Part shown: positions 13,294 to 39,643 of the stretch, one piece after another
Numbering within the stretch: the stretch's first letter is position 1
Layout: each line of letters begins with the position of its first letter
NCBI GenBank assembly: GCA_963847945.1
Contig: CAWKBX010000009.1
Location: 583,915 to 647,914, forward strand
DNA from: an uncultured Actinomycetes bacterium
GTDB taxonomy: Bacteria; Actinomycetota; Acidimicrobiia; Acidimicrobiales; Ilumatobacteraceae
Length of the DNA: 64,000 nucleotides
Direction: 5' to 3'
Position numbers and translations under genes: made by a program
Notes under the pieces: model-generated
What the model saw: only the letters and a program-made list of their open reading frames with translations
The model's database searches: none
What the model was told of the DNA's origin: nothing

Positions 13294-14715
13294 CTAGCGG
13301 TCGGGGCGAGGAGGGCGGAGTGAGCCGCGGGTGGGGGTGCCTTCGCGGCGTTGTTCGATGCGTTTGTTGAGCTCTCGCTTGGCCCGACCGGTCAGGGTTT
13401 GCGGCACCGGCAGGCCTTTGCGGACGCGCTGCATGCTGATCATGTAGGTCGCCATGGCGAAGGCCGCGAGGGCGCCGACGATGGCGAATCCGAGCGAGCC
13501 GGGGATGGAGATCAACACCGGCACGATGCCGGCGGCCACCCACGCCAATTGGAACTTGGTTTCGAACTGGGCGAACGCCCGGCCCTGGTTGGCGCCGCGG
13601 GCGTCACGCTGAACCGTCGAGTCGAACGCCAACCGACCAATGGCGGCGGCCATGTTCACCGCGGCCATCAGCAGCAGGGCGGCGAGTACCCCACCGACGA
13701 GGGCCGCGCCGACTCCGGCGATCGCCGTGAATCCGAGAGCGCCGATCAACATCAGTTCCTCGCGCACCGATCGGCGGATGAAGGGGCCGAGCGTGTTGCC
13801 GATCATCGTGCCGATCGCCGCCAACCCCACTCCCAAACCGAACCACAGGGTCCCGGTGTTCTGATCGGCATGCCGCAGCCAAAAGGCCAGGTGAAAAAAC
13901 AAAAACCCAACGGACGCCCGCAACAGCCCCATCGCCGTCGCGGCCAACAGAATCACGGGAGAACGCAACTCCAACTGCTCGTCGCGGCCTACGCGATCGG
14001 CGGCGACCACCTCGCGTGGCAGCTGGGCGGCGGCCAGCAAGGCCGCGAGGAACACCAGGACATCGAAACCCAACGTCGCCCGGTCGCTGATCAGGTGCAG
14101 CAGGCCGGCGGGGATCGCGGCAAGAAACCCGACCACGCCCGAGATCACGCCGAGCTTCGAGTTTGCCTCGACCAACTCCTCCTCACCGCTGACCACCGTC
14201 GGCACGAGCGCAGACTTCGACACCACGTAGGTCTTCTGCAGCACCATGGCCGCGAACGCGAGGGGGAACAGCAGAACGTTGTCGAGGTTGGCCATCATCA
14301 AGATGCTCACCACGGCCCGACCCAGCGCCGTGATCTGCACGACCAGGCGACGACCACCGGCCATCCGGTCGATCACCGGACCGATCAGCGGAGCGACCAC
14401 GGCGAAGGGGGCCACGCTGACGGCCAGGAACAACAGCACCTTGCCACGCGCCGCGGTGGGGCTGATGTCGAGGAACAGCGACCCGGCGAGGGCCACGGCC
14501 ATGACCGCCTCACCGGCGGCCATCAGGGCGTGGGTGCGGGCCAAGAGTTGGAACGGCGTCAGCGGACGACCGGACCGCGTCGTCGATGCTCCGACGCCTC
14601 CGAGCGCCCGGCCCACCCGACCACCTCTGCTGGGAACACGACGGGTCACCACCCGGCGCGGCGGCACCCCGGCGCGACCGCTACCAGGTCGGGAAGTTCG
14701 GCCTGGCTCGGGCAT
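13294..14715 (-). CDS. MFS transporter
   Basis: About 12 hydrophobic helices after an Arg/Pro-rich N-terminus. Confidence 0.8.
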   Translation of the reverse strand: MPEPGRTSRPGSGRAGVPPRRVVTRRVPSRGGRVGRALGGVGASTTRSGRPLTPFQLLARTHALMAAGEAVMAVALAGSLFLDISPTAARGKVLLFLAVSVAPFAVVAPLIGPVIDRMAGGRRLVVQITALGRAVVSILMMANLDNVLLFPLAFAAMVLQKTYVVSKSALVPTVVSGEEELVEANSKLGVISGVVGFLAAIPAGLLHLISDRATLGFDVLVFLAALLAAAQLPREVVAADRVGRDEQLELRSPVILLAATAMGLLRASVGFLFFHLAFWLRHADQNTGTLWFGLGVGLAAIGTMIGNTLGPFIRRSVREELMLIGALGFTAIAGVGAALVGGVLAALLLMAAVNMAAAIGRLAFDSTVQRDARGANQGRAFAQFETKFQLAWVAAGIVPVLISIPGSLGFAIVGALAAFAMATYMISMQRVRKGLPVPQTLTGRAKRELNKRIEQRREGTPTRGSLRPPRPDR

Positions 14716-14862
14716 CGGCCCACTCTACGACGCAGCGATTGAGCCAACGAGTCTGCCGGTGGTGCGCTCGGTGTGCCCGCCGGGCGGACACGGGGGAAAC
14801 GCTGGTACGTGAGCAGACCGGCGACGCTGTTCTCCCCTTGTTCGACTGCCGATGATCCACGT

Positions 14863-14893
14863 GTTACCCAGCGGACACCACCGATTTACCCAA
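14863..14893 (+). promoter_or_regulatory. candidate Pho box: direct repeats GTTACCCA / TTTACCCA spaced 23 nt, 50-80 nt upstream of phoX
   Basis: Direct repeat of a (G/T)TTACC core, as for OmpR-family PhoP/RegX3 sites; a similar repeat lies upstream of pstS. Confidence 0.35.
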
Positions 14894-14940
14894 ATTTTCT
14901 AGTGTCGGTGACGTACGCAAACCGAAGGTGAGGACTCTTT

Positions 14941-16968
14941 ATGCCCAACGTCGACGACGACATCGAGACGAACACGAGCTCAAATCCGCAGCTCTCCGAC
15001 ATCGTTGCAACGCAACTCTCGCGCCGCCGGGCCCTCCAGGTCGGTGGCCTGGTGGCCGGCGCTGCGTTCTTCGCCGGTCGCGGCGCACGACCGGCCGCCG
15101 CAATCCCGGGCGATCCCGCGCCGGCCGATCCCGCCGCACCGGAGGTCGCCGAGGTCGCCATCACGGCGGCACCGCTGATCGGGTTCGCCAGCGTGCCGCT
15201 GAACAGCGACGATGCGATCACCGTGCCCCCCGGCTACACCGCCCGACTGCTGTTCGCCTGGGGCGATCCGGTGGGCAAGGGTCCGGCGTTCAAGTTCGAC
15301 GCCTCCCAGGATTGGAAGACCCAGGCGCTCCAGGGCGGCATGCATCACGATGGCATCTTCTACTTCCCCAAGGACGACGACGAGGAGTCCACCGAAGGCC
15401 TGTTGTGCATCAATCACGAGTACGTCGATCAGGGGCTGTTGTTCCCTGACGGCATGGCCACCTGGACGGCCGACAAGGTCCGCAAGGCTCTCGCCGCCCA
15501 CGGGGTGTCGGTCATCGAGGTCGAAGCCGACGGCGATGAGCCGTGGGCCGTCGTGCGGGGTTCGAAGCGCGCACGGCGCATCACCGGCGTCACCCCCACC
15601 AAGGTCGTCGGCCCGGCCGCCGGATCGGCCCTGCTGCAGACCACCGATGACCCGAAGGGCACCAAGGTGCTCGGGACGCTGAACAACTGCGGCAGCGGCC
15701 AGACCCCGTGGGGCACGTACGTCACCTGCGAAGAGAACTTCAACGGCTACTTCGGATGGGACGGCACCTACACCCCGACCGCCGAGCAGGCCCGCTACGG
15801 CCTCGCCAAGGACGGCTTCGGCTACCGCTGGCATGACTTCGACCCTCGCTTCAACGTGCGACTGAACCCCAATGAGCCCAACCGCTTCGGCTGGAACGTC
15901 GAGATCGACCCCTACGACCCGAAGAGCACCCCGCTCAAGCTCACCGCCCTCGGCCGGTTCAAGCACGAGAGCGTGGCGTTCCGCCTCACCGCCGATGGTC
16001 GACCCGTGTGCTATTCGGGCGACGACGAGCGCAACAACTACCTCTACAAGTTCGTCGGCAAGCACACCGTGCGTCAGGCCAAGAAGCGCAAGATCAGCCC
16101 GCTGGCCGAAGGCACGCTGTATGTCGCTCGCTTCAATGCGGGTCCGGTCGTCGGCGACGAGATGGGCGTCGGCGAGTGGCTGCCGCTGACCACCGACAAC
16201 CCGGCATTGGCCGGCATGTCAATCGACCAGATCCTCGTCCATGCCCGGGTGGCCGCCGACAAGGCGGGAGCGACCAAACTCGACCGCCCCGAATGGGTCA
16301 CCATCGCCCCCGACAATCTGGGCTACGTGGCCTTGACCAACAACAGCCGCCGCGGTCGCACGACGACCAATCCGAGCGAGAACCCGAACTCCGTCGCCGA
16401 CGAGGCCAACCCGCGAGCGGCGACCGGAGCTGGCAACCCCTACGGTCAGATCGTCCGCTGGTCAGAAGATGGCGATGCCGACGCGACGACGTTCACGTGG
16501 GACATCTTCATCCTCGCCGGCGATCCGGCCAACCCGGCGGCCCTCGATGGCTACAAGCCGGGCGGCAGCGTGGTCGGCGACATGTTCGGCTCTCCTGATG
16601 GCCTGTGGGCCGATGCCGATGGTCGCATCTGGATTCAGACCGACATCTCGACCAGCACGCTGGGGGCCGGGCCGTATGTGAACATCTCGAACAACATGAT
16701 GTTGGCTGCCGATCCGGTCACCAAGGAAGCCCGGCGTTTCCTCGTCGGCCCGAAGGGTTGCGAGGTGACCGGCGTCTGCACGACCCCCGACCAGCGCACG
16801 ATGTTCGTCGACATCCAGCACCCGGGCGAGCCGGCCAGTGAGACGAACGATCCGGCCAATCCTCAGGCGATCAGCAACTGGCCCGACTTCCGCCCGATCG
16901 GTCAGGGTCGCCCCCGCTCGGCGACCGTGGTCATCACCAAAGACGACGGCGGCATCATCGGAACGTGA
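14941..16968 (+). CDS. phoX: PhoX family alkaline phosphatase (Tat-secreted)
   Basis: Twin-arginine signal SRRRALQVGGLVAGAAFFAG; characteristic PhoX/DUF839 length and motifs; an RBS (aaggtgagg) precedes the ATG. Confidence 0.9.
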   Translation: MPNVDDDIETNTSSNPQLSDIVATQLSRRRALQVGGLVAGAAFFAGRGARPAAAIPGDPAPADPAAPEVAEVAITAAPLIGFASVPLNSDDAITVPPGYTARLLFAWGDPVGKGPAFKFDASQDWKTQALQGGMHHDGIFYFPKDDDEESTEGLLCINHEYVDQGLLFPDGMATWTADKVRKALAAHGVSVIEVEADGDEPWAVVRGSKRARRITGVTPTKVVGPAAGSALLQTTDDPKGTKVLGTLNNCGSGQTPWGTYVTCEENFNGYFGWDGTYTPTAEQARYGLAKDGFGYRWHDFDPRFNVRLNPNEPNRFGWNVEIDPYDPKSTPLKLTALGRFKHESVAFRLTADGRPVCYSGDDERNNYLYKFVGKHTVRQAKKRKISPLAEGTLYVARFNAGPVVGDEMGVGEWLPLTTDNPALAGMSIDQILVHARVAADKAGATKLDRPEWVTIAPDNLGYVALTNNSRRGRTTTNPSENPNSVADEANPRAATGAGNPYGQIVRWSEDGDADATTFTWDIFILAGDPANPAALDGYKPGGSVVGDMFGSPDGLWADADGRIWIQTDISTSTLGAGPYVNISNNMMLAADPVTKEARRFLVGPKGCEVTGVCTTPDQRTMFVDIQHPGEPASETNDPANPQAISNWPDFRPIGQGRPRSATVVITKDDGGIIGT

Positions 16969-17011
16969 CCGCCGCATAGTCCCCCTGCACTTCACCCGGC
17001 AGGGCAACGAC

Positions 17012-17050
17012 AAACGGGCACCATGTGGTCGATCCACATGGTGCCCGTTT
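17012..17050. terminator. perfect 17-bp stem hairpin between the convergent phoX and regX3-like genes (bidirectional terminator candidate)
   Basis: aaacgggcaccatgtgg-tcgat-ccacatggtgcccgttt; a second smaller hairpin (ccctgc..gcaggg) lies at 16983-17004. Confidence 0.6.
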
Positions 17051-17121
17051 CACGTTCCGGCAACGTTTTGGTGGGTCGGACCAGCCGACCGGTCGCCGCT
17101 TGCGGGCGACGACCGCGGACC

Positions 17122-17820
17122 TCAGCGAGGCTTCTCGTATTTGTAGCCGAGGCCTCGAATGGTCACCAGCAGTACTGGGTTGGTCGGATCAGGCTCGATC
17201 CGATTCCGCAGGCGCTTGACATGAACGTCGAGGGTTTTGGTGTCACCCACGTAGTCGGCGCCCCACACCCGATCGATCAGCACGTCGCGGGTCAGCACCC
17301 GGCCGGCGTTCGCCAACAGCAAGTGCAACAGATCGAATTCTTTCAACGGCAGCGTCACCGCCCGTCCGCGGACCGTGACCTCGTGTTGCTCGGGGTCCAA
17401 GGCGACGTCGCCGATGGTCAGCGCTCCTGCGGCAGCTGGTGCGTCGCGCTCCACCGGGACCCGACGGGAGACGGCTCGCATTCGGGCGACCAACTCTCGC
17501 ATCCGGTACGGCTTGGTGATGTAGTCGTCGGCTCCCACCTCCAGGCCGACGACGGTGTCGATCTCCGAACCCTTGGCGGTGACCATGATGATCGGCACCC
17601 GCGATCGTTTACGCAGCTCACGACACACATCGATGCCCGAGACACGCGGCAACATGACATCGAGCAGCACCAGATCGGGCTGCACCTCATCGAATCGGGC
17701 CAGAGCCTCGGCGCCGTCGCGGGCGACCTCGACCCGGAATCCTTCGCGGGCGAGACCGATCCGCAAAGCGTCGATGAACGACTCTTCATCCTCGACGACG
17801 AAAACGGTGATGACGCTCAC
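17122..17820 (-). CDS. OmpR/PhoB-family response regulator (RegX3-like)
   Basis: Receiver domain (VFVVEDEE, LLDVMLP, VTAKG) plus a winged-helix C-terminus (GYKYE); GTG start at 17820. Confidence 0.9.
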   Translation of the reverse strand: MSVITVFVVEDEESFIDALRIGLAREGFRVEVARDGAEALARFDEVQPDLVLLDVMLPRVSGIDVCRELRKRSRVPIIMVTAKGSEIDTVVGLEVGADDYITKPYRMRELVARMRAVSRRVPVERDAPAAAGALTIGDVALDPEQHEVTVRGRAVTLPLKEFDLLHLLLANAGRVLTRDVLIDRVWGADYVGDTKTLDVHVKRLRNRIEPDPTNPVLLVTIRGLGYKYEKPR

Positions 17821-17824
17821 AGGT

Positions 17825-18986
17825 TCAACGCTCCTCTGGTTCCAGATGGCTATCGGCCGGGACTCGCAGTGTGAATGTGCTGCCCTGGCCTTCCTCGGAA
17901 TGGACGAAAATCTCGCCGCCGTGGTTGACCGCGACGTGACGTACGATCGCCAAACCCAACCCGGTCCCACCCGTGTCGCGTGATCGCGCCCGGTCGACTC
18001 GGTAGAAGCGTTCGAAGATGCGCTCGAGGTGTTGCTGACCGATCCCCATGCCGCGATCGGCCACGATGACGTCGACCCATTGCCCATCGTTGGCCGCACC
18101 GATCGTCACCGGGTCGCCATCGGCGGAGTACTTGACCGCGTTGTCGAGCAGGTTGGCGACCGCCGAGACGAGTTGCCGGCGATCTCCGACCAGACGTGTG
18201 TCGGCGATACTGCGGTCGACGACGACCCGCACTCCTCGGAGTTCGGCCAGTTGATTGACCCGCTCCACGGCGTCTTCAACGACCGATCGGAGGGCGACGA
18301 CGTCGCGAACCGGCTCACCTCCGAGCTCGATGCGCGACAGCTCAAGCAGGTCGTCGATGGTCCGCGCCAGGCGCGTCGACTCGCGCACCACCTTGCCGGC
18401 GAGGCGTCGCGCGGTAGGGAAGTCGTCGACGTCGGCCAGCGTTTCGGCGAGGAGCGACATCGCCCCGACCGGCGTCTTCAGCTCGTGGCTGATGTTGGCG
18501 ACGAAGTCGGTACGCACGGCATCAAGGCGCGTGCGCTCGGTGACGTCTGAGACGGTCACCAGCCAACCACCTGGATCGTCGGCGAGTTGGACACCCTGGA
18601 GTTGCAGGGTGCGCGGCGGTGGACCCTGCAGCGCAACGATTCGCCGGGCAACCCGATTCGTCTGGTGATCGGCCAGCAGTTGTTCAACCGCTTCGCCGAC
18701 CAGCGCATCGCCATAACGGGACCCGACGACCCGTTCGACCGACGCATTACGCAGCAGCACCCGAGCCGAACCGTCGGTGAGCATGACCCCGACGTCGAGC
18801 GCATCGAGCGACACTCGCAAGCGATGGGCATCGGCTTCGGCGGCCAGAGCCCGCTCCTCGGCGCGTTCGCGACTCCTGGCGGTCCGATCGAGCCCGCGCC
18901 ACGGAGGCCTTGAGGCGGCGGTGGATGACCAGCCAGGTCACCAGCACCCCGATGAGCGCCCCGAGCGCGAGCAGAGCGACGGGCAT
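17825..18986 (-). CDS. sensor histidine kinase (SenX3-like), one frameshift near 18895
   Basis: HisKA H-box FVANISHELKTP and HATPase_c (GGTGLGLAIV). The N-terminal TM (MPVALLALGALIGVLVTWLVI) is in a different frame from the kinase core. Confidence 0.8.
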
Positions 18987-18994
18987 GGGCGAAC

Positions 18995-19735
18995 TCAGGT
19001 GTCGGTCTGGTCGGTGAGGGGGGTTCCCGCCGCGGGCGTTCCGTCAACGGTGCGCGCCAGATGACGAGCGGCACCCGAATGCTCGGGGAGCCACCCGGTC
19101 ACAAGGAACCGCACCCGCTCTCCGATGTTGACAGCGTGGTCGCCGATTCGCTCGTAGAACCGGCCGATCATCGCCAGTTGGATCGCCACCTGCAAATCGA
19201 TGGAGCCCGCCGCGTTGCTCTCGAAGATCACCTGGATGAACTGGCGATGCAGGTCGTCGAGAAACGAGTCCATGTCATCGATCGCCGCAGCCTTGGCGGC
19301 GTCGTTCTCGGCGTACGAATCCATCGCCGAAATGAACAACGACTGGGCCTGCTCGCTCATCTTGGTGATCAGGCCGCGCAGCTTCGGGTTGAGTTCGTGC
19401 CCATAGATGCGCCGTGCCCCCTTGCAGATGTTCACCGCGAGGTCGGCCGAGCGCTCTACTTCGCCGGCCATCTTGATCGCCGCGATCACGGCGCGCAAAT
19501 CGCTCGCCACCGGTGCCTGCAATGCCAGCAACTGGAAGCAGCGCTCCTCGACATCGATACAGATCGAATCGATCTCGTCGTCGGACTGGATCAACAGATC
19601 GGCACCCTCCAGGTCGGAGTCGAGCAAGATCCGCGTTGCCCGGGGAACCGCATCGATCACGAACGCGCCGGCCAGCATCAACTGATCGTGGACCTCACCG
19701 AGAGAATCGTGGAAGTGCTTGCGTAGCTCGGGCAT
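18995..19735 (-). CDS. phoU: phosphate transport system regulator PhoU
   Basis: Two PhoU repeats; the start ATG overlaps the pstB stop (TGATG). Confidence 0.9.
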   Translation of the reverse strand: MPELRKHFHDSLGEVHDQLMLAGAFVIDAVPRATRILLDSDLEGADLLIQSDDEIDSICIDVEERCFQLLALQAPVASDLRAVIAAIKMAGEVERSADLAVNICKGARRIYGHELNPKLRGLITKMSEQAQSLFISAMDSYAENDAAKAAAIDDMDSFLDDLHRQFIQVIFESNAAGSIDLQVAIQLAMIGRFYERIGDHAVNIGERVRFLVTGWLPEHSGAARHLARTVDGTPAAGTPLTDQTDT

Positions 19736-20649
19736 CAGCCAAACCGTCCCGTCACATATGCCTCGGTCCGTTCATCGGACGGTTGGGAGAACATCTTCTC
19801 GGTGCGATCGAACTCGACAAGACGGCCTGTACGACGATCGCTGTCGGGGTTGATCTCGGTGGTGAAAAACGCCGTGTAGTCGCTGACCCGGGCGGCCTGC
19901 TGCATGTTGTGGGTCACGATGATGATCGTGTACTCCTGCTTGATCTCCTGCATCAGATCCTCGATGCGCGCGGTGGCAATCGGGTCGAGGGCGGAACAGG
20001 GCTCGTCCATCAGCACGACCTCGGGGTCGATCGCCATGGCCCGGGCGATGCAGAGCCGCTGTTGCTGCCCGCCCGACAGACCAAGGGCCGAACTCTTCAG
20101 CCGATCCTTCACCTCGTCCCACAACGCCGCGCCCTTCAGCGACTTCTCGACGGCATCGTCGAGGTCAGCCTTCTTCGGGCGCCCATTGACGCGTAGCCCG
20201 AACGCGACGTTCTCGTAGATCGACTTCGGGAACGGGTTGGGCTTCTGAAACACCATGCCGATCCGCCGGCGGACTTCGCCGGCGTCTGCTTCGGGCCCGT
20301 ACATGTCGATGCCGTGATAGGTGACCTTGCCCTCGACGCGGGCGCCGGGGATCAGGTCGTTCATCCGGTTGAAGCACCGCAGCACCGTGGACTTCCCACA
20401 GCCCGATGGCCCAATGAAGGCGGTGATCCGGCCACGGTGGAGTGACAGATCGACTTCTCGTACCGCCCGGAACGCGCCGTAGTACACCGCGAGGTCGCGG
20501 GCCTCGAGCACGACATCATGGGTTTCGACGGGTTCTGCGGAGAGACCCGCCATCCCTGGCCGCAGAGGCCTGGCCGCGGCCACGCCCGATGTGGAAACAG
20601 CCGGTTCGTTCACGACCAACATCTCGTCGTTCCCTTCGTTGATAGACAT
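19735..20649 (-). CDS. pstB: phosphate ABC transporter ATP-binding protein PstB
   Basis: Walker [10 protein letters not shown], signature LSGGQQQRL, Walker B/D-loop; start at MSINEG. Confidence 0.95.
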
Positions 20650-20653
20650 CGAA

Positions 20654-21553
20654 TCACCACGACTTCCGGAAGCGATTTCGTACGTAGATCGCCACCGCAT
20701 TGAGGGACAAAAGGATCACCATCAGCACAATGATGGCAGCCGCCGCCAGTGGCTTGAACTCCTGCTTCGACTGGCTGACGTAGTTGAAGATCTGAATCGG
20801 CAGGGTGGTGAACTTCGAGTCGAACCCCTCGGGATTGAACGTCACGAAAGTGAGGGCACCGATCATCAGCAACGGGGCCGACTCGCCCAGGGCTCGCGAG
20901 ACCGACAGGATGCTGCCCGTGGCGATGCCGGGCACCGCGTTGGGAAGCACTTGGCGTCGCACCGCCTGCCAGCGAGTGGCACCGAGCGCCAGCGCCCCTT
21001 CCCGCAACGAGGGCGGGACCGCCCGCAGCGCCTCGCGCGAGGTGATCACCACGGTCGGCAAGACGAGCATCGCCAGGATCAGCGCCCCGGTCATCACCGT
21101 GAAGCCGAGTCCGAGCGGGCCACGTGCGACGAAGGCGAGTCCGAGGATGCCGTAGACCACCGACGGCACGGCGGCCAGGTTTTGGATGTTCAACTCGATG
21201 AGCCGGTTGTACCAGCGGTCCTTGCGGGCAAACTCTTCGAGGTACACCGCGGCGGCGACCCCGATCGGGAGAGAAATCGCGGCCGTGGTCAACACCACCC
21301 ACAACGAGCCCCAGATCGCCGATTCGATACCCGCCCGCTTGGGCCGGGCCGACGGCATCGAGGTGACCAGTTCGCGGTTCAGCCGAGGACGAGCCTCGAC
21401 AAACACGTCGATGAGCAACGTAGCGAGCACGCCGAGGGCGATGCCGATCGAGGCGACGATCGCCCATTTGAACAGTGAGTTCCGTAGTCGCCGATCGCTC
21501 GTCATCGTCGATCGCAGATCGGTGACGGTCGCGGTGTCCTGTACTGAGCTCAT
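20654..21553 (-). CDS. pstA: phosphate ABC transporter permease PstA
   Basis: ABC permease with an EAA-like loop; start at MSSVQDT overlapping pstC. Confidence 0.9.
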
Positions 21554-22449
21554 TCGTACGCCTCCCGGAATCGACGCACGATGCGCATGCTGATGATGTT
21601 GAGCACCATCGTGATCACGAACAGGAACGAGCCGACGGCGAAGATCGTCTTGTAGCCGACCGACCCGGTGGGCTGGTCCCCAATGCCGGCGAAGCCGATG
21701 AAGCCGGCCATCGTCTGCATGCCTTCGCCCGGATTCACCGTCAGGGCCGGCCTGCTGCCCGCCGCCAACAACGCAATCGTCGTCTCGCCCACGGCTCGGG
21801 ACCCGGCCAACACGACGGCAGCGACGATGCCCGAGAGGGCGGCGGGGAACACGACCTTGGTGCACACCTCGCGTCGGCTGCTCCCCAGTGCCAGTGCTCC
21901 GTCGCGCAGGGCCTGGGGCACCGACGACATCGCATCCTCGGCGAGCGAGGCGACCGTCGGCAAAATCATGATTCCGGTCACCAAGCCGGCGGTCAGCGCG
22001 CTATAGGTGCCGACCTCACCGACCGGCCAGATCTTCTGCACCAACTGTGGGGTGACGAAGTTGAGCGCGAAGAACCCGAAGACCACCGTCGGCACGCCGG
22101 CCAGCACCTCAAGCACCGGCTTGAGCACCTTGCGGACTCCGGGTCGGGCGTATTCGGCAAGATAGAACGCCGCACCCAGCCCGAGTGGGATGGCGATCAC
22201 CAGGGCGATCACCGCAACCCACAGGGTTCCGACGACGATCGGCCACACGCCATACCGCGCCGGCTTGAACAGGGGAGCCCAGTCGGTGCTCCCGAAGAAG
22301 TCCCCGAAACCGACATTGCTGAAGAAGTCGAATGCAGGTCGGGCAAGGGCAATAACGATCAACACGGTGATCCCGACGGTGACGATTGCCGCCGCCGCCA
22401 GGATCACCTTGATGATGCGTTCATACACATATCTGCCGGCGCGCTGCAC
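21550..22449 (-). CDS. pstC: phosphate ABC transporter permease PstC
   Basis: Six-helix ABC permease characteristic of PstC. Confidence 0.9.
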   Translation of the reverse strand: MQRAGRYVYERIIKVILAAAAIVTVGITVLIVIALARPAFDFFSNVGFGDFFGSTDWAPLFKPARYGVWPIVVGTLWVAVIALVIAIPLGLGAAFYLAEYARPGVRKVLKPVLEVLAGVPTVVFGFFALNFVTPQLVQKIWPVGEVGTYSALTAGLVTGIMILPTVASLAEDAMSSVPQALRDGALALGSSRREVCTKVVFPAALSGIVAAVVLAGSRAVGETTIALLAAGSRPALTVNPGEGMQTMAGFIGFAGIGDQPTGSVGYKTIFAVGSFLFVITMVLNIISMRIVRRFREAYE

Positions 22450-22538
22450 CGGTGGGCCGAAGGCTCACCGGTGCAGCGCCCGAGACGGGGGGAATGTTCA
22501 CGAGTTGGTTGTACTCGAAGTTGCTTCGGACCCGGGTA

Positions 22539-23609
22539 TCAGGCGCCGACGATTTCGGCGACTTCGGCCGCCTGCTTGGTCTTCTGGGCGTCGTCGAGCG
22601 GCACGAACAGCGCCTCTTCGATCAGCGCATCCTGGTCGGCGAGGAAGAACTCGGCGAACGCCTTGACCTCGGGGCGGGCGGCCGACTTCATGCTGACGTA
22701 CATGTACAGCGGCCGGGCGAGGGGGGTGTAGGTGCCGTCCTGCACGGTCTCGGTCGACGGGAGTACGCATCCGCCGCCACTGTCGATTGCCACGCCCTTG
22801 AGCTTGCCCTCGTTCTCGAGCAGGTACGACAGGCCGAGGTAGCCAAGGCCACCCTTGTCGCCGGAGATGCCGGTGATCGTGTTGTTGTCGTCTTCCGACG
22901 GGTTGTAGTCGGCGCGGCTGGCACCCTCTTCACCGTTGATCTCCTTGGTGAAGTAGTCGAACGTGCCCGAGTCGGTGCCGGGGCCGAACAGGGCGAGCGC
23001 CTGGTCGGGGAAGGCCGGGTCGATCTGGTTCCAGTTGGAGACGGTGCCCTCGGCCTCGGGTGCCCACATCGTGCCGAGCTGCTCGACGGTCAGGCACTCG
23101 GCCCAGTCGTTCTCGGGGTTGACGACGACCGAAAGGGCGTCATTGGCGACGACGACTTCGACGAACTCGATGCCTTTGGCGGCGCATGCCGCAGCCTCTT
23201 CATCCTTGATCGCCCGGGAAGCGTTGGAGATGTCGGTCTCACCGGCACAGAACTTCTCAAAGCCACCACCGGTACCGGACGTACCGACCGTCACCTGCAC
23301 ACCATCGTTGGCGGCCATGAAATCCTCGGCGGCCAGCGAGCTGAGCGGGGCCACCGTCGACGAACCGTCGATCGAGATGGCACCGCCGGCTGCGGGCTCC
23401 GCCGCCTCGGTATCTGCGGGCTCGGGCTCGGCCGCAGCCTCGGTAACCGTCGGCTCGGCTGCCGCCGCGGTGGTGACGACAGCTGCCGCGGCGGTCGTGG
23501 CCGCAGGGGCGGCGGGCTCGGAGGACTCGCTGCCTCCACACGCCGCTCCGAGCAGGCTGATCACTGCCACACCGGCGGCGAACGAAAGACGCTGACTCTT
23601 GATGTTCAC
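22539..23609 (-). CDS. pstS: phosphate-binding lipoprotein PstS
   Basis: GTG start at VNIKSQRL; lipobox LLGAACGG; Ala/Thr/Glu-rich linker followed by a PBP domain. Confidence 0.9.
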   Translation of the reverse strand: MNIKSQRLSFAAGVAVISLLGAACGGSESSEPAAPAATTAAAAVVTTAAAAEPTVTEAAAEPEPADTEAAEPAAGGAISIDGSSTVAPLSSLAAEDFMAANDGVQVTVGTSGTGGGFEKFCAGETDISNASRAIKDEEAAACAAKGIEFVEVVVANDALSVVVNPENDWAECLTVEQLGTMWAPEAEGTVSNWNQIDPAFPDQALALFGPGTDSGTFDYFTKEINGEEGASRADYNPSEDDNNTITGISGDKGGLGYLGLSYLLENEGKLKGVAIDSGGGCVLPSTETVQDGTYTPLARPLYMYVSMKSAARPEVKAFAEFFLADQDALIEEALFVPLDDAQKTKQAAEVAEIVGA

Positions 23610-23702
23610 GCTTGAACTCCTCTTGTGATCGCATTCACTTGGTTGATGAAACGAACCGTAGAAGTCCAAGTTGTCGGCAAGGGATGACGGAGATGAACAG
23701 GA

Positions 23703-23733
23703 GGTAAACGGATACCGAATGGTCGGTAAACGG
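23703..23733 (-). promoter_or_regulatory. candidate Pho box upstream of pstS: direct repeat GGTAAACGG x2 (CCGTTTACC on the coding strand), 22-nt spacing
   Basis: Direct repeats 95-125 nt upstream of the pstS start; same TTTACC core as upstream of phoX. Confidence 0.35.
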
Positions 23734-23834
23734 GATTCCGGCAAGCGGTGTGACCAGGCCGAATAGCCCATCCACGACCGGCACTGCGACTTATCCGCCC
23801 CGGCGACGGGTCGCCTCGGGGTGGTGTTGGCCCG

Positions 23835-25941
23835 CTATTTCGGGCGCTGGCGCTCCTCGACCCAGCGTTGCATCTGCAACTGGACATCGACCTCGCCCGG
23901 CTGACGGTGCCACTCGCCATCAGATTGCAGCTCCCAGCAGCGCACCTCAGCACCGAGTTGGAAATCGAACACCGAATCAAGCCAGAACTGATGGCGAGGG
24001 TGACGCACCGGTACCAGCGTTTCGACGCGGGAGTCCAGGTTGCGCGGCATCATGTCGGCCGAGCCGATGAGATGCAGCGGACCGCCGTCGATGTCTCCGT
24101 GACCGAACCGGTAGATACGGGAATGCTCCAAGTACCGCCCGAGAATCGAGCGGACCCGAATCGTTTCCGACACCCCCGGCACGCCGGGTCGCAGACAGCA
24201 CAGGCCGCGCACGATCAGATCGATCTGCACCCCCGCCTGGCTTGCCTCGTAGAGCGCCCGCACCATCCGCGGGTCGCCCAACGAGTTCATCTTCGCGGTG
24301 ATCCGACCGTCGGTGCCGAACGAGGCCTCGCGATCGATCAGCTCCAACAGCTGCGTGCGCAAATGCTCGGGGGCGACGAGCAGCGATCGGTAGCGCTGCA
24401 TGCGGGCAAAGCCGGTGAGATGGTTGAACAACTGCGTCGCGTCGGCGCCGATATCGGGGTCACAGGTGAAGTAGCCGATGTCCTCGTACAAGCGCGCGGT
24501 GCGCGAGTTGTAGTTTCCGGTTCCCAGATGAACGTATCGGCGCAGACCGTCGTCGTCGGCCCGCACGACCAGAACGCACTTCGTGTGGGTCTTGAGCCCG
24601 CTGAGGCCATAGACCACATGCACGCCGGCCTGTTCCAGCGTCTTGGCCCACTCCACATTGGTGGCCTCGTCGAAACGCGCCTTGATCTCGACCATCGCGG
24701 CCACCTGCACGCCTCGTTCGGCGGCGCGGATCAGGCTGCGGGCAATCGCCGAGTCGCCCGATGTGCGATACAGCGTGATCTTGATCGTCTGCACCGCCGG
24801 GTCTTCGGCAGCTTGCTCGATGAACTCCTCGACCGATGACGCGAACGACTCGTATGGATGGTGCACCAGCAGGTCACGCTCACGAATCACCGAAAAAGGC
24901 TGCGGCCGGCGGCGTCGGCGGTGGCGACGCGGCCGGCGGTGATGTTCGGCCACGGCTTGAACTTGATCTTGGGCAGATCGAGGGCGTGGAGTTCGTTGAG
25001 GAACGTCAGGTCGATCGGAGCGCGATGCCGCGTGACGTCGTCGAACGCCAAGTCGAGCTGGTCGATGAGGAGTTGCTCCACCTCACCGGGCATCTCTCGA
25101 TTGACCTCGAGGCGGACCGACCGGCCGAACCGGCGACGTTTCAACTCGGTTTCCACGGCGACGAGCAGGTCGTCGGTGTCTCCCTCTTCGAGGGGAAGGT
25201 CGGCGTTGCGCGTGACCCGGAAGGTCCACCAGCCCTCGATCTCCATGCCCGAGAACAGCGTCGGCAGTTGGGCAGCGATGACCTGCTCGATGAGCACGAA
25301 CCGATATGAGCCCGGCAGCCGGGCCAGCCGGGGAAACAGCGGCGGCACCTTGACTCGGGCGAATCGACGTTCTCCTGTCTCGGGGTTCCGCACCGAGACC
25401 GCCAGGTTGAGCGACAGGTTCGAGATGTATGGAAACGGGTGCGAGGGGTCGACGGCTAGCGGTGTCAGAATCGGAAAACCCGCTGTTCATACAGCTCTAT
25501 CAGGTGTTTTCGCTCGTCACCGGTCAGGTCACTCCACGACGCGATCGTGACACCTTGGTCTGCAAGCAACGGAAGTAGGACGTCGAGGACCAGCGTTTCT
25601 TGTCGCTCGACCAGCGGTTCGACGGCCGCCCGAATTGCCGCGAGCTGTTCGGCGGCCGACAGGCCATCGGGCGAAAGCGCCCTCGACCCGGCGTCTTGCT
25701 GACCCTTGAGCATCGCCACGCGGACCTGGAAGAACTCATCAAGGTTCGACGAGACGATGGAACCGAACTTGACGCGTTCCAGGAGCGGCACCGAGACGTC
25801 ATCGACCAGCTCAAGGACTCGGGCGTCGAAATCGAGCCAGCTCAGTTCGCGATTGATGTACAGGTCGGTGATCTCACCGATCGTAGAACGACGGTCGGCC
25901 ACGTCGCCGCGGTCTTCGGAGGGATGTAATGCGCCGTTCAT
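23835..25941 (-). CDS. ppk: polyphosphate kinase 1 (PPK1), split into 3 frames by at least 2 frameshifts
   Basis: Contiguous N-terminal, middle and C-terminal PPK1 pieces (ORFs 25465..25941, 24887..25393, 23835..24953); frame changes near 24920 and 25430. Confidence 0.85.
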
Positions 25942-27047: not shown

Positions 27048-27227
27048 CTACTTGGTCTCGGTCGACTCCTCGGCGGTCTTCTTGCCGTCGTCGAGGCCCT
27101 TCTTGAATTCCTTCTGAGCCTGACCCAGGTTCTTGGCCAACTTCGGCAGCTGCGAGCCACCGAACAGGACGAGCACCAGGACCAGAACGATGATCATCTC
27201 CTGGGGCCCAAAATCGAAAGCGAACAT
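27048..27227 (-). CDS. tatA: twin-arginine translocase subunit TatA/E (59 aa; below the ORF-track size cut-off)
   Basis: Translates to MFAFDFGPQEMIIVLVLVLVLFGGSQLPKLAKNLGQAQKEFKKGLDDGKKTAEESTETK: an N-terminal TM with the FGxxKLP hinge, an amphipathic helix and an acidic tail. Coordinates may be off by 1. Confidence 0.8.
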   Translation of the reverse strand: MFAFDFGPQEMIIVLVLVLVLFGGSQLPKLAKNLGQAQKEFKKGLDDGKKTAEESTETK

Positions 27228-27290
27228 GGCGATTACGCTAGCACTCGTCGACGGATTTGGGTAGGGCGAAGGCCGATGTCACGCGAACGC

Positions 27291-36359: not shown

Positions 36360-36957
36360 CACCACTCCGACTCGACCGACCCCCCGGACTTCAGCCCGGC
36401 AACTCGTCTCGCGCCACCACCGGACGCCACTTTGGAGCACAATCACGCTCCCAGCGTGACCGCACTCCCCGAAACCCGAAACCCGAGCCCCCGCGGCTGG
36501 GCGGGGCGGCGACTTGGCACTGGGCGATCTCGGATATGGTCCCAGGCGTGCAGCGGCGTGACCTCGAGAATGGACTGCCAGCCCCCACCGGGGGTTGGCG
36601 AGCCTGCCCCGGGGCTCCCCCGGGGTGTCAAGTGTTGCTTGAGCATTCCATCGCCGGCGCGAGACGGTGCTGGCGCACCGCACCACGCCCGCACGGCCAG
36701 TACAGTCGAGGCGCGTCGCTGCACCCATGAATCGGCGGGATCAGATCATCACCCAGGCGGTCGCCGGAGCGTTTCTCGCCGGCGAGTGGGAGCCACGGCT
36801 GATGGTTCGCCGTGCCGGCCGAGCGCTGGGCGATCGCCGGACCACCTGGTTGACGCCGCTCGCCACGTTGGTCGTCCACGCCTTTCCCATTGCCCCTCAC
36901 GACGCTCCTCGCGAGTTGGGTGCCGTCATCTGGGCGAGTGGAATCATCCAGGAACAA
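36360..36957 (+). ncRNA. candidate retron msr/msd-type non-coding RNA region upstream of the RT (boundaries not determined)
   Basis: About 600 nt without a convincing CDS, carrying several G-rich hairpins (ccccc-acc-ggggg at 36581-36593, ccccggggctcccccgggg, tcaag-tgttg-cttga at 36629-36645, ctggc..gccag at 36669-36700) and a short tandem gaaacccgaaacccga. Position and orientation match a retron ncRNA; a1/a2 repeats could not be assigned by eye. Confidence 0.25.
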
Positions 36958-38082
36958 ATGCGCGCCGACACGATGGCGCTCCGACCGCAGTGGCGAATCC
37001 ACCCCGCTACGGCACCGATTCGAATGAGAGCGACGCCCTGGCCCGTTGCCGAGATCGACTCGCTCGGTGACTTGGCCGAGCATCTCGGGCTCTCCACCGG
37101 GCGCCTCCGGTGGTTCGCTGACGTCCGATCGTGGGAGCGGGCTGTCGGTGTCGAGCCTCTGCGGCAGTACCGCTACCGGTGGCTGCCGTCGTCGAGCGGC
37201 TTTCGGCTGATCGAGGCGCCCAAGGGCACGTTGCGACACATCCAACGAGTGTTGCTCCGCACCATCCTCAACCATGTACCCATCCACGATGCCGCCCACG
37301 GGTTCCATGTCGGCCGATCGATCCACGGCTTCGTCGCCCCACACGTGGGCGCACCGGTGCTGATCAAGGCCGACCTGCGGGCGTTCTTCACCTCGATCAC
37401 GGCCGGACGCGTCTTCGGCCTGTGGCGGCGGATGGGCTACGCGGAGCCGGTCGCCCACGTCTTGACCGGGCTGACCACGAACGCAGTCCCCTCGTCGGTT
37501 CTGCGTCGATCGCCCGCCGCCGATCACCACCTCGCCGCGCTCCTTCGTGGCCCGCACCTCCCGCAGGGAGCCCCGACGTCACCCGCCTTGGCCAATCTGC
37601 TGGCATTTCACCTCGACGTGAGACTCGATGCGATGGCGCGGTCGTTCGGGGCGAACTACACGCGCTATGCCGACGACCTCGCCTTCTCGGGGGCCGCGAC
37701 GCTGGAAAAACGACAGCTCGCCCTGCTGCGGCTGGCCGAGGAGATCGTGCGCGACGAGGGTTTCCGGCTCAACCCGCTCAAGACCGCGGTCGCCGGCCCC
37801 GCACAGCGACATCGACTTGCCGGCATCGTCGTCAACGCTCGACCGAACATCGATCGACGAGAATACGACCAGCTCAAGGCCGAGTTACACGATGCCGTCA
37901 CCAACGGACCGGTCGTCGCCAACCGGCGCGACAACCCGCATTTTCGCGACCACCTGCTCGGCCGCATCGGCTGGGTTGCCGAGCTCAATCCGCCACGGGC
38001 CGAACGACTGGAGGCGATGTTCGACCGCATCACATGGGATACGACGGGAAAACGACGACGGCGTGAGTGTGTGACGCCGTGA
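36958..38082 (+). CDS. retron-type reverse transcriptase
   Basis: Collinear with Ec86-type retron RT: WPVAEIDSLGDLAEHLGLSTGRLRWF; SGFRLIEAPKGTLRHIQRVLLRTIL; VAPHVGA (NAxxH-like); DLRAFFTSI; LPQGAPTSPALANL; YTRYADDLAFS; GFRLNPLKT; HRLAGIVVN (VTG-like). No maturase or endonuclease domains. The start is taken at ATG 36958 (aGGAAcaaATG); the ORF is open back to 36667. Confidence 0.85.
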   Translation: MRADTMALRPQWRIHPATAPIRMRATPWPVAEIDSLGDLAEHLGLSTGRLRWFADVRSWERAVGVEPLRQYRYRWLPSSSGFRLIEAPKGTLRHIQRVLLRTILNHVPIHDAAHGFHVGRSIHGFVAPHVGAPVLIKADLRAFFTSITAGRVFGLWRRMGYAEPVAHVLTGLTTNAVPSSVLRRSPAADHHLAALLRGPHLPQGAPTSPALANLLAFHLDVRLDAMARSFGANYTRYADDLAFSGAATLEKRQLALLRLAEEIVRDEGFRLNPLKTAVAGPAQRHRLAGIVVNARPNIDRREYDQLKAELHDAVTNGPVVANRRDNPHFRDHLLGRIGWVAELNPPRAERLEAMFDRITWDTTGKRRRRECVTP

Positions 38083-38126: not shown

Positions 38127-38441
38127 TCAGGCGGACTGAATCTTGATTTCGATGTCGACGCCGGCCGGCAGCTCGATGCGCTGCAGGCTGTCGATGGTCT
38201 TCGGGTTCGGATCGACAATGTCGATCAGGCGCTTGTGAATGCGCATCTCGAAGTGCTCACGGCTGTCCTTGTCCTTGTGCGGCGACCGGATGACCGTATA
38301 ACGGTGCTTGTCGGTCGGCAGCGGGATGGGACCGCGCACCTTGGCGTTGGTACGGGTGACCGTCTCGACGATTTTCTTCGTCGACTGGTCGATGATTTCG
38401 TGATCAAACGCCTTGAGGCGAATACGGATGCTCTGGGCCAT
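38127..38441 (-). CDS. rpsJ: 30S ribosomal protein S10
   Basis: [14 protein letters not shown]...RGPIPLPT...[16 protein letters not shown] is canonical S10. Confidence 0.95.
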
Positions 38442-38458
38442 GTTGTTGTATCAGCCGA

Positions 38459-39643
38459 TCACTTGAGAATCTTGGTGACGCGGCCGGCGCCAACGGTACG
38501 GCCACCCTCACGAATAGCAAACCGCAACTGCTCATCCATCGCGATCGGCTTACCAAGCTCCACGATCATCGTCACGTTGTCACCAGGCATGACCATCTCG
38601 GTCCCCTCCGGCAACTGCACCATCCCCGTCACATCCGTCGTACGGAAGAAGAACTGCGGCCGGTAATTGTTGAAGAACGGCTTATGACGACCACCCTCCT
38701 CCTTGTTCAACACATACACCTGACCCTCAAAATTCGTATGCGGAGTAATACTGCCCGGCTTACACAACACCTGCCCACGCTCAACATCCTCCTTCTTCGT
38801 CCCCCGAAGAAGCGCACCGATGTTGTCGCCCGCCATACCCTCATCAAGCAACTTACGGAACATCTCCACACCCGTACACGTCGTCTTCTGCGTCTTACGC
38901 AACCCAACGATCTCAATCTCATCGCCCGTGTGGACCTTGCCCTGCTCAATCTTGCCCGTGACCACCGTGCCACGACCCGTGATCGTGAACACATCCTCAA
39001 TCGGCATCAAAAACGGCTTATCCAACTCACGCAACGGCTCCGGCACCGACGCATCACACGCCGCCATCAACTCCATGATCTTTTCCTGCCACGCCTCATC
39101 ACCCTCCAACGCCTTCAACGCGCTGACCCGCACCACAGGGCAATCATCACCCGGAAACTCATACTCCGACAGCAACTCGCGAACCTCAAGCTCCACCAGC
39201 TCCAGCAGTTCCTCATCATCGACCATGTCAGCCTTGTTCAACGCCACCACGATGTACGGCACCCCAACCTGACGAGCCAACAACACATGCTCACGCGTCT
39301 GGGGCATCGGACCATCAGTCGCCGCCACCACCAAGATCGCCCCATCAACCTGAGCCGCACCCGTGATCATGTTCTTGATGTAGTCCGCGTGACCCGGCAT
39401 GTCCACATGGGCATAATGGCGATTCACCGTCTCGTACTCGATATGCGCGATCGAGATCGTGATACCACGAGCCTTCTCCTCCGGCGCCTTATCGATCTGA
39501 TCAAACGGCGTGTAATTCGCCAGACCCTTACCCGCCAACGTCTTAGAAATCGCCGCCGTCAACGTCGTCTTACCATGGTCAATATGACCCATAGTGCCGA
39601 TATTCACGTGCGGCTTATTCCGCTCGAACTTTGCCTTGGACAT
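38459..39643 (-). CDS. tuf: elongation factor Tu
   Basis: [26 protein letters not shown], full-length canonical EF-Tu. Confidence 0.97.

Follow-up and report, generated by a model that had tools for sequence, protein, structure and literature searches.

Does the phosphate gene cluster of an uncultured Ilumatobacteraceae bacterium work as a phosphate-limitation (Pho) module of the kind known from Streptomyces and Mycobacterium, and is it driven from a single regulated promoter? The cluster lies in a 64-kb window (the whole stretch of DNA analysed here, part of contig CAWKBX010000009.1), for which a preliminary description had reported ppk1, pstS, pstC, pstA, pstB, phoU, a SenX3-like kinase and a RegX3-like regulator on the minus strand, a convergent phoX, and short repeats upstream of both pstS and phoX. 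We estimate a probability of about 80% that the locus is the Pho module of an Acidimicrobiia bacterium, working like Streptomyces PhoR-PhoP and mycobacterial SenX3-RegX3. The sequence upstream of pstS is well supported as a bona fide PHO-box-type promoter following classical actinobacterial logic. A literature search found no work on Pho regulation in Acidimicrobiia.

The window had a G+C content of 62-70%, and its closest relatives in the genome collection were metagenome-assembled Acidimicrobiia with record titles of Ilumatobacteraceae or Acidimicrobiales. The comparison set consisted of 80 related Acidimicrobiia loci (designated L001 onwards), whose PhoU proteins ranged from 93% down to 61% identity to that of the window, and ~1.2 Mb of their sequence was scanned with the matrix described below. 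A search for the exact PhoU protein of the window matched no record. Some records (L006, L013, L033, L048, L064-L066, and L072) were titled 'Bifidobacterium breve', 'uncultured Bifidobacterium sp.' or 'Ferrithrix thermotolerans DSM 19514'; these titles stand on Acidimicrobiia-like metagenome-assembled contigs and by appearance are labelling artefacts.

Gene calls based on Pfam domains and NCBIfam curated cut-offs, together with the best solved relatives for the regulator, upheld the gene content reported earlier, the place of ppk1 directly upstream of pstS, and the identification of the whole as a Pho cluster. On the minus strand, pstS (22539-23609) encodes a PBP_like_2 lipoprotein (TIGR02136, 281 bits vs a cut-off of 206.6) with a GTG start, the ribosome-binding site AAGAGGAG, and the lipobox LLGAAC. 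It is followed by pstC (21550-22449, GTG start; TIGR02138, 244.7 vs 196.45 bits), pstA (20654-21553; TIGR00974, 260.5 vs 193.45 bits), pstB (19735-20649; TIGR00972, 390.7 vs 343.2 bits over residues 48-304), and phoU (18995-19735, two PhoU domains; TIGR02135, 160.3 vs 130.25 bits), and all five products (5/5) scored above their curated cut-offs. PstB carries an N-terminal extension of ~45 residues ahead of the part matched by the model.

The two-component genes stand at the end of this string. The SenX3/PhoR-type histidine kinase gene (17825-18986, minus strand) comprises a catalytic PAS-HisKA-HATPase open reading frame (ORF) at 18820-17825 and a transmembrane helix read from an ATG at 18986. 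Pfam matched HisKA and HATPase_c, with a weak match to PAS_4, and the best NCBIfam models were PnpS (262.7 bits vs a cut-off of 400) and PhoR (257.2 vs 334.2), scored with a query that lacked the N-terminus. The RegX3/PhoP-type response regulator of the OmpR/PhoB family (17122-17820, minus strand) has Response_reg and Trans_reg_C domains. Its best solved relative was M. tuberculosis RegX3 (2oqr; E=2.6e-87, 295 bits), followed by MtrA at 208 bits; the DNA-binding recognition region was near-identical to that of 2oqr, and the segment LTR..LIDRVWGADYVGDTKTLDVHVKRLR was identical. As the regulator scored 222 against the proteobacterial PhoB equivalog cut-off of 296, it is not a PhoB equivalog, and judged by these matches it is a RegX3 orthologue.

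The seven genes pstS-pstC-pstA-pstB-phoU-kinase-regulator run head to tail, with gaps from -4 to 8 nt except for an 89-nt spacer between pstS and pstC. The junctions quoted in the preliminary description were all present in the sequence: the pstB stop overlaps the phoU start as TGATG, the phoU TGA is followed after 8 nt by the ATG at 18986, and the kinase TGA is followed after 4 nt by the GTG of the regulator gene (17820). In addition, pstC and pstA overlap as ATGA, and pstA and pstB are separated by 4 nt.

In front of this string stands the only strong operator-like site. The two copies of CCGTTTACC reported upstream of pstS, 22 nt apart, were found at 23733-23725 and 23711-23703 on the minus strand. 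Their interpretation as Pho boxes held in part: they are related to the GTTCACC PHO boxes of actinomycetes, but the core operator is formed by adjacent 11-nt units and not by copies 22 nt apart. The core PHO box at 23690-23711 (minus strand) consists of two 11-nt direct repeat units, CCGTTTACCTC (23711-23701, 12.0 bits) and CTGTTCATCTC (23700-23690, 15.0 bits), of which the first contains the second reported copy and the other, the strongest unit of all, had been overlooked. The first reported copy belongs to an extra in-phase unit, CCGTTTACCGA (23723-23733, minus strand, 7.1 bits), 22 nt upstream of the first core unit. The pstS promoter thus holds at least two tandem 11-nt units with a third in phase, and their cores GTTTACC, GTTCATC, and GTTTACC (12.0, 15.0, and 7.1 bits, respectively) are of the G(G/T)TCAYY type. 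A -10-like hexamer of the pst promoter, TACGGT (23655-23660, minus strand), begins 51 nt downstream of the first base of the first core unit.

With a 24-nt matrix built from 23 distinct sites, the segment 23688-23711 scored 21.1 bits, the best in the window, compared to 19.9 bits for the best of 100 shuffles. Phased unit pairs of at least 14 bits occurred only at the pstS promoter, besides one inside the phoU coding sequence, with an expectation of 0.12-0.17 per spacing per shuffled window. As a repeat alone, CCGTTTACC is unremarkable, because the window contains 51 exact 9-mers repeated within 33 nt (17.5 ± 5.9 in shuffles). No PHO-box-like units were detected upstream of ppk on either strand.

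The same operator recurs in the relatives, where its conserved form is a tandem GTTCACC-N4-GTTCACC with an 11-nt period. The core box of the window aligns base for base with CCGTTCACCTC and CCGTTCATGTT, the adjacent units of the close relative L001, and its position upstream of a phosphate-acquisition gene is conserved, since site, strand, and TAnnGT offset recur in ~50 related loci. Allowing up to 2 mismatches, 28 of 52 loci carried the seed GTTCACC-N4-GTTCACC in the 280 nt that follow the ppk stop; the box of some relatives begins right at this stop codon. The matrix scan of the related loci gave 87 matches of at least 16 bits, nearly all of them on the coding strand and immediately ahead of the gene that opens the pst/phoU string, and including ~17 loci outside the training set. 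The remaining matches preceded divergent PstS-type binding proteins, PhoU_div, PHO4 (pit) genes or a second phoU. Because the matches were confined to phosphate genes, the motif marks phosphate genes in related loci, and the enrichment upstream of other Pho genes that the preliminary description had asked for as a test was borne out for the clade.

Among 50 non-identical promoters of this family, units of at least 5 bits were found at offset 0 in 98%, at +11 in 96%, and at +33 in 42%, while every other offset had at most 8%. The +33 unit was often GGTTACC, CGTTACC or GTTTACC. TAnnGT occurred at offset 51-52 in 38 of the 50 promoters, and TAnnnT in 46. The extra upstream unit of the window (23723-23733) had no counterpart in L001, and upstream units were not enriched in the family.

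These data also bear on a different geometry, in which each of the two promoters would have as its functional Pho box two (G/T)TTACC half-sites separated by 22 nt (two helical turns), unlike the 11-nt tandem. A search of both strands of the window for KTTACC-N15-17-KTTACC gives just two occurrences, one in each of these promoters and both in the sense orientation. A 22-nt distance also separates the second core unit from the promoter-proximal unit in the family, the proximal one often being GGTTACC, CGTTACC or GTTTACC. However, the pattern was derived from the same two sites, so the count is circular, and 96-98% of family promoters have their strong units side by side at an 11-nt distance. Furthermore, the strongest unit of the window, CTGTTCATCTC (15.0 bits), lies outside the proposed pair, the upstream pstS copy is missing from L001, and the phoX octamers, which depart from the near-invariant G and T, stay below 3 bits. 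We regard the half-site geometry as improbable, and the tandem of adjacent 11-nt units remains our preferred description of the operator.

A different operator design was seen upstream of pstS in L004, L019, L021, L051, L070, L072, L076, and L078, where the PHO box is palindromic: two coding-strand units are followed by two or three overlapping units on the opposite strand (e.g. GTTCATCTGAACAGAAGATGAAC), a head-to-head grammar unlike that of the window. PHO boxes before PhoU_div or PHO4 (pit) genes were observed in other relatives, with which L010 and L011 were listed, and L011 has a second kinase at this locus.

Gene order across the 80 loci bears on whether the string is transcribed as one unit. 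The phoU-kinase-regulator trio was present in essentially all loci, and the gene string usually stood directly behind ppk. Its first genes varied: pst(S)CAB preceded phoU in 28 loci and pstB did so in 18, while phoU itself came first in 29, and pstSCAB lay between ppk and phoU in about a third of loci. The PHO box always preceded the first gene of the string, be it pstS, pstB or phoU, and no match of at least 16 bits was found between pstB and the kinase gene in any locus where phoU and the kinase gene are directly adjacent. Layout, synteny, the single PHO-box promoter at the head, and a hairpin at the end are consistent with one co-transcribed unit that would join the two-component system to the transporter and phoU.

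The terminal hairpin (17012-17050) has a 17-bp perfect stem and lies between the convergent regulator gene and phoX; its region had a z-score of -3.98, with an A tract before and a U tract after the stem, and it is likely a bidirectional terminator. A second hairpin, with a 14-bp stem, is found in the pstS-pstC spacer (22441-22479, minus strand), its 3' arm holding the pstC GTG. The spacer folded with -54.3 kcal/mol for 111 nt (z-score -5.3); the same hairpin is present in L001, and an unrelated strong hairpin occupies the same place in L052. It may set the PstS:PstCAB ratio, with PstS in excess, through attenuation, stabilisation or translational occlusion. The ppk-pstS spacer showed no significant structure (z-score -0.7), so a terminator there is unsupported. 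Terminator-like matches were at chance level in number (7 vs 5.7 expected), with none beyond chance between pstC and the regulator gene. An Rfam search of 14-27.5 kb gave no match, which argues against the involvement of a riboswitch or leader.

Alternatively, the seven genes may form more than one transcription unit, with an internal promoter in pstB or phoU driving phoU-kinase-regulator or the kinase-regulator pair alone; in Streptomyces and mycobacteria these genes likewise form separate units. Before it can be induced, a two-component system must be expressed at a basal level; the very stable hairpin in the 89-nt spacer could terminate part of the transcripts, and some relatives have a second PHO box after phoU, before an inserted second phoU. 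Yet the junctions in question (an overlap, 8 nt, and 4 nt) provide no intergenic room, no box of at least 16 bits lies between pstB and the kinase gene where phoU and the kinase gene adjoin, the box shifts to the front of phoU in variants without pst genes, and terminator-like sites from pstC to the regulator gene do not exceed chance. We consider separate units unlikely, at perhaps one chance in several, and favor a single transcript starting at the pstS promoter.

The second phoU paralogue is inserted between phoU and the kinase gene in L069, L070, L072, L075, L076, and L078, and has its own PHO box where this was scored (L069, L070, L072, and L076). In L018, L027, L034, and the 18 'pstB-first' loci, pstB is kept with phoU-kinase-regulator even where the locus lacks pstC and pstA or has them transcribed divergently; with divergent genes, the spacer between them bears PHO boxes on both strands. 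The retention of pstB with phoU, kinase, and regulator genes is compatible with a single signalling complex made up of PstB, PhoU, and the kinase.

Compared to pstS, the case at phoX is weaker. The phoX gene (14941-16968, plus strand) encodes a full-length alkaline phosphatase (PF05787, E=2.4e-157, 525.6 bits, profile positions 2-515 of 515). The twin-arginine signal claimed for it is present as SRRRALQ followed by a hydrophobic stretch (SRRRALQVGGLVAGAAFFAG at residues 27-46), which predicts export of PhoX by the twin-arginine translocation (Tat) pathway. The lone tatA was also recovered as a TatA/E-family ORF at 27048-27278 (minus strand; TIGR01411, 58.3 vs 53.9 bits) flanked by unrelated ORFs; none of the neighbouring ORFs has a Tat domain, and no tatC lies beside tatA in the window. 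A gene for a transporter of the major facilitator superfamily (MFS; 13294-14715, minus strand) is divergent from phoX and shares with it a 225-nt promoter region (14716-14940); the pair is conserved in L002.

Both repeat copies reported upstream of phoX are present, GTTACCCA at 14863-14870 and TTTACCCA at 14885-14892, but their spacing is 22 nt and not 23. Upstream of them, two adjacent 11-nt units, CTGTTCTCCCC and TTGTTCGACTG, occupy 14827-14848 on the plus strand (4.7 and 5.7 bits), and their cores GTTCTCC and GTTCGAC (14829-46) partly agree with the unit core. The segment 14827-14850 was the second-best matrix match in the window (13.1 bits), in sense orientation 91 nt before the phoX ATG; from the shuffle rate, we estimated a chance of ~0.002 for a match of this score in this 230-nt stretch on this strand. 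The 11-nt phase of these units runs on through CCGATGATCCA, CGTGTTACCCA (14860-70), GCGGACACCAC, and CGATTTACCCA (14882-92), the last three covering the reported repeats (14860-14892, plus strand), and it ends 7 nt before TAGTGT. Six units of one phase thus extend over 14827-14892, all of them weak. The octamer-bearing units, TGTTACC and ATTTACC, depart from G(G/T)TCAYY at the first two positions and score below 3 bits because these are the two most conserved positions.

TAGTGT (14900-14905, plus strand; TAGCGT in L002) is a putative -10-like hexamer of phoX. It has the TAnnGT form and would stand at the family offset of 51 nt if the first core unit were put at 14849, in which case the octamers would sit at the second-unit and promoter-proximal-unit positions of the family relative to TAGTGT. 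L002, whose PhoX is 93% identical, retains the GTTC cores, GGACACC, TTTACCC, and TAGCGT but not the spacers; GTTACCCA becomes GTCACTCG there. In L081 (PhoX 69% identical), three phased units, GAGTTCGTTCG, CCCTTCACCCG, and CAGTTCACTCC, of the GTTCnnn, CTTCACC, and GTTCACT types, lie at a similar distance from the start codon. The phoX operator would accordingly be of a weak, complex type, with the octamers serving at best as low-affinity extension units.

The repeats near phoX could instead be unrelated to the Pho regulator, arising by chance or forming the site of another factor acting on the region between the divergent MFS-transporter gene and phoX. The low unit scores, the 225-nt region held in common with the MFS gene, and the L002 segment, which reads GGTGTC-N8-GACACC and is an inverted repeat, are in line with this view. 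On the other hand, there are six units in one 11-nt phase that end 7 nt before a conserved TAGNGT, TTTACCC and GGACACC are kept in L002 and the spacers are not, L081 has a clear three-unit array, and Pho-type direct repeats widely precede phoX in other phyla. An unrelated origin therefore appears unlikely, about as much so as separate transcription units, and we retain a weak Pho operator as the working description of the phoX promoter.

The 'supercluster' of the preliminary description stands only in part. It holds for ppk plus one operon, but phoX is only a lineage-specific neighbour, adjacent to the Pho string in L002 alone, the closest relative, and ppk has no box of its own, so that the regulatory unity was overstated.

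The preliminary description recorded ppk1 and the kinase gene correctly as present, but overlooked that the reading frames of both are broken. The ppk1 gene (23835-25941, minus strand) has the four domains PP_kinase_N, PP_kinase, C_1, and C, distributed over three reading frames by two -1 frameshifts instead of forming a single intact ORF; its C-terminal piece alone reached 476.2 bits with TIGR03705 (cut-off 465.85). In a tblastn search, the intact polyphosphate kinase of L001 aligned as three pieces in three frames abutting at 25474-77 and 24893-96, where T runs are one base shorter than the frame requires, i.e. two single-base deletions. In the kinase gene, the ATG at 18986 opens MPVALLALGALIGVLVTWLVIHRRL, the membrane helix, in a frame that stops after 79 codons and is not that of the catalytic ORF. 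The alignment showed one additional nucleotide in the window near 18875 compared to L001, L002, and L003, in which, as in other relatives, helix, linker, and PAS form one ORF. Membrane anchor, PAS, HisKA, and HATPase are thus all encoded, the anchor being out of frame in the window and in frame in relatives.

Frame segmentation based on GC3 confused the strands, and was used only to pick candidate breaks that were then tested with Pfam. Among other overlapping same-strand ORFs, Pfam revealed split domains in two more genes with unrelated functions. For Glu_synthase, profile positions 54-240 and 240-367 lie in different frames, with GGGGG where DGRGGGTGAAP needs six G, and MoCoBD_1 positions 18-216 and 213-244 are likewise split, with CCC where GRPESSF needs four C. 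In total, breaks were found at 18870-18880 (kinase), 24893-24896 and 25474-25477 (ppk1), 42989-42993, and 56986-56999, the last two affecting a Rieske/Glu_synthase gene and a xanthine-dehydrogenase-type MoCoBD gene. Of these five breaks, four are deletions of a single base from runs of T5/T6, G6 or C4, spread across 64 kb and unrelated functions. As single-base run losses also strike unrelated genes, they point to errors of the assembly consensus and not to selective decay of Pho genes; the ppk and kinase frameshifts are most likely assembly errors, and both genes are probably intact in the organism. A glycosyl-hydrolase-1 fragment at 30380-30985 matches only profile positions 56-169 of 453.

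If the kinase gene and ppk1 were true pseudogenes, regulated Pho signalling and polyphosphate synthesis would be lost, and the operon would be constitutive or silent. Three frame breaks fall within 8 kb of Pho genes, and that of the kinase gene lies outside any evident homopolymer. Nevertheless, identical single-base run losses in two unrelated housekeeping-type genes indicate a sequence-wide artefact, both ppk breaks are T-run deletions in an otherwise 73-87% conserved sequence with no further decay, the remaining Pho genes are intact, and an anchor-less SenX3 still senses phosphate in M. smegmatis (PMC12301784), although the internal TTG of the window kinase has no plausible ribosome-binding site in front of it. 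Pseudogenes are the least probable of the alternatives considered here, and we proceed with both genes as probably intact. Because of homopolymer indel errors of this sort, an automatic annotation would list ppk1 and the phosphate sensor as pseudogenes.

Taken as a working Pho module, the locus would operate as follows. When phosphate is scarce, PhoU would cease to hold the kinase in phosphatase mode, and the kinase would phosphorylate the RegX3-like regulator. Regulator molecules would then occupy the coding-strand repeats in head-to-tail order and bring RNA polymerase to the -10 hexamer. Transcription of the whole string would produce positive autoregulation of the sensor pair along with its negative regulators, Pst and PhoU, while the hairpin after pstS, which covers the pstC start codon, could keep PstS above PstCAB. 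The convergent phoX would be a separate unit; as its six-unit array is weaker, it probably needs more active regulator. The conserved upstream neighbour ppk1 has no PHO box of its own, and read-through from ppk could give basal expression of the sensor pair, since the ppk-pstS spacer shows no significant structure and the box lies at the ppk stop in some relatives.

Several observations weigh against this account. The search was not naive, its matrix having been seeded from the established Streptomyces consensus, and a sigma-70 consensus scan of 14.5-26.5 kb returned zero promoters. The +33 unit of the window pstS promoter is degenerate (GCCGACAACTT), compared to the 42% of relatives that have one. 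At phoX, the 13.1 bits are close to the best score that a random 64-kb sequence reaches on average, and the case for the weak units depends on where they lie and on their conservation in two relatives only. Of 66 more distant metagenome PhoX loci, only 2 reached 13 bits; the proteins of this set were mostly ~50% identical and from other phyla with PhoB-type boxes (PhoB-like TGTCA repeats upstream), leaving L081 as the only informative relative. The kinase break is not at an obvious homopolymer and may be a real mutation. Finally, co-transcription and the -10 assignment were deduced from sequence and not from transcripts.

A broader reading concerns the class as a whole. In Acidimicrobiia, the phosphate-sensing circuit (the transporter or at least PstB, with PhoU, kinase, and regulator) may form one self-activating unit behind ppk1, driven by an operator of fixed grammar not described for Streptomyces. 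This grammar would consist of two adjacent units, one skipped helical turn, and a third unit ~8 nt before a TAnnGT -10. The window would represent a variant that has gained an upstream unit and whose proximal unit has degenerated. We offer this reading tentatively, at somewhat less than even odds. If it is true, the contiguity of PstB, PhoU, and kinase genes would be comparative evidence for a PstB-PhoU-PAS signalling complex, and the basal amount of sensor would be determined by read-through from ppk.

The value of the locus is mainly one of extension. It would carry the experimentally defined PHO-box logic of Streptomyces PhoP and mycobacterial RegX3 over to Acidimicrobiia, which are abundant in lakes and soils, where phosphorus limitation is ecologically important, and which are almost uncultured. 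The practical yield is a position matrix and a promoter geometry for predicting Pho regulons in Acidimicrobiia metagenome-assembled genomes. The understanding of Pho regulation itself is unchanged by the finding, and for a specialist the system is ordinary.

Elsewhere in the window, a stand-alone reverse transcriptase ORF of 471 aa (36667-38082, plus strand; RVT_1, E=3e-16, YADD motif) adjoins rpsJ and tuf. No maturase or other partner domain was seen in it, and it could be a retron-, Abi- or DRT-type enzyme. At 38127-39643 (minus strand), a dip in G+C to 58%, accompanied by a strongly negative GC skew (38-40 kb), falls on tuf and rpsJ; a mobile element or foreign island there was considered and rejected, as these two genes have the codon usage of highly expressed genes.

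Among known systems, the closest in operator design is Streptomyces, whose PHO boxes consist of tandem 11-nt units G(G/T)TCAYYYR(G/C)G, with a minimum of two units (PMC2275107). In S. coelicolor, a 10-nt unit cripples binding, complex operators contain up to six units, some of them poorly conserved, and pstS has an (EE)CC operator on the coding strand, 39 nt from the transcription start (PMC2275107). Similarly, the window has tandem 11-nt G(G/T)TCAYY-core units on the coding strand upstream of pstS, arranged as a core pair plus an extra upstream unit, and a weaker multi-unit operator before a phosphatase gene. In Streptomyces, phoU lies beside phoRP and ppk beside pstSCAB (PMC7866108), linkages that are likewise found here. 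In contrast, pstSCAB, phoU, and phoRP are three separate units in Streptomyces, with phoU attached to phoRP, whereas the seven genes here are contiguous on one strand. Unlike Streptomyces, the Acidimicrobiia family also often adds a third unit at a fixed place, a further helical turn downstream and right ahead of the predicted -10, a feature known here from the sequence alone.

With the mycobacterial SenX3-RegX3 system, the locus shares a regulator whose closest solved relative is RegX3 and a kinase gene with the elements of a transmembrane helix-PAS-DHp-CA layout, the anchor being out of frame in the window. The M. tuberculosis RegX3 site GGTGCcaactGGTGA is the reverse complement of the TCACC core (bioRxiv 10.1101/400960), so that the core is common to both. 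PhoU acts on the PAS domain of SenX3 (PMC12301784), and by analogy the kinase here may be controlled by PhoU in the same way. However, the mycobacterial senX3-regX3 locus is separate from pst and phoU/phoY, and the reported RegX3 repeats have a 10-nt period (5+5), compared to 11 here.

In E. coli, pstSCAB-phoU form one PhoB-activated operon with a direct-repeat box of 11-bp period near the -10. The joining of transporter genes and phoU in one operon, and a box of this period close to the -10, are thus alike, while phoBR lies elsewhere in E. coli and its box is CTGTCAT, compared to GTTCACC here. The Caulobacter pstCAB-phoU-phoB operon under a PhoB-dependent promoter (bioRxiv 10.1101/2023.10.07.561339) is a precedent for co-transcribing transporter, phoU, and response regulator genes from a regulator-dependent promoter, although phoR and pstS are separate there and both the phylum and the box are different. 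Tat-exported PhoX systems, e.g. that of Campylobacter jejuni (PMC3197622), resemble the window in the full-length PhoX domain, the twin-arginine signal, and the phosphate-regulon context as predicted here; unlike them, the window has a tatA with no adjoining tatC. The components, the operator type, and the pairwise gene linkages are all known already, and judged from the loci compared, what sets this system apart is the joining of seven genes on one strand, conserved over a class.

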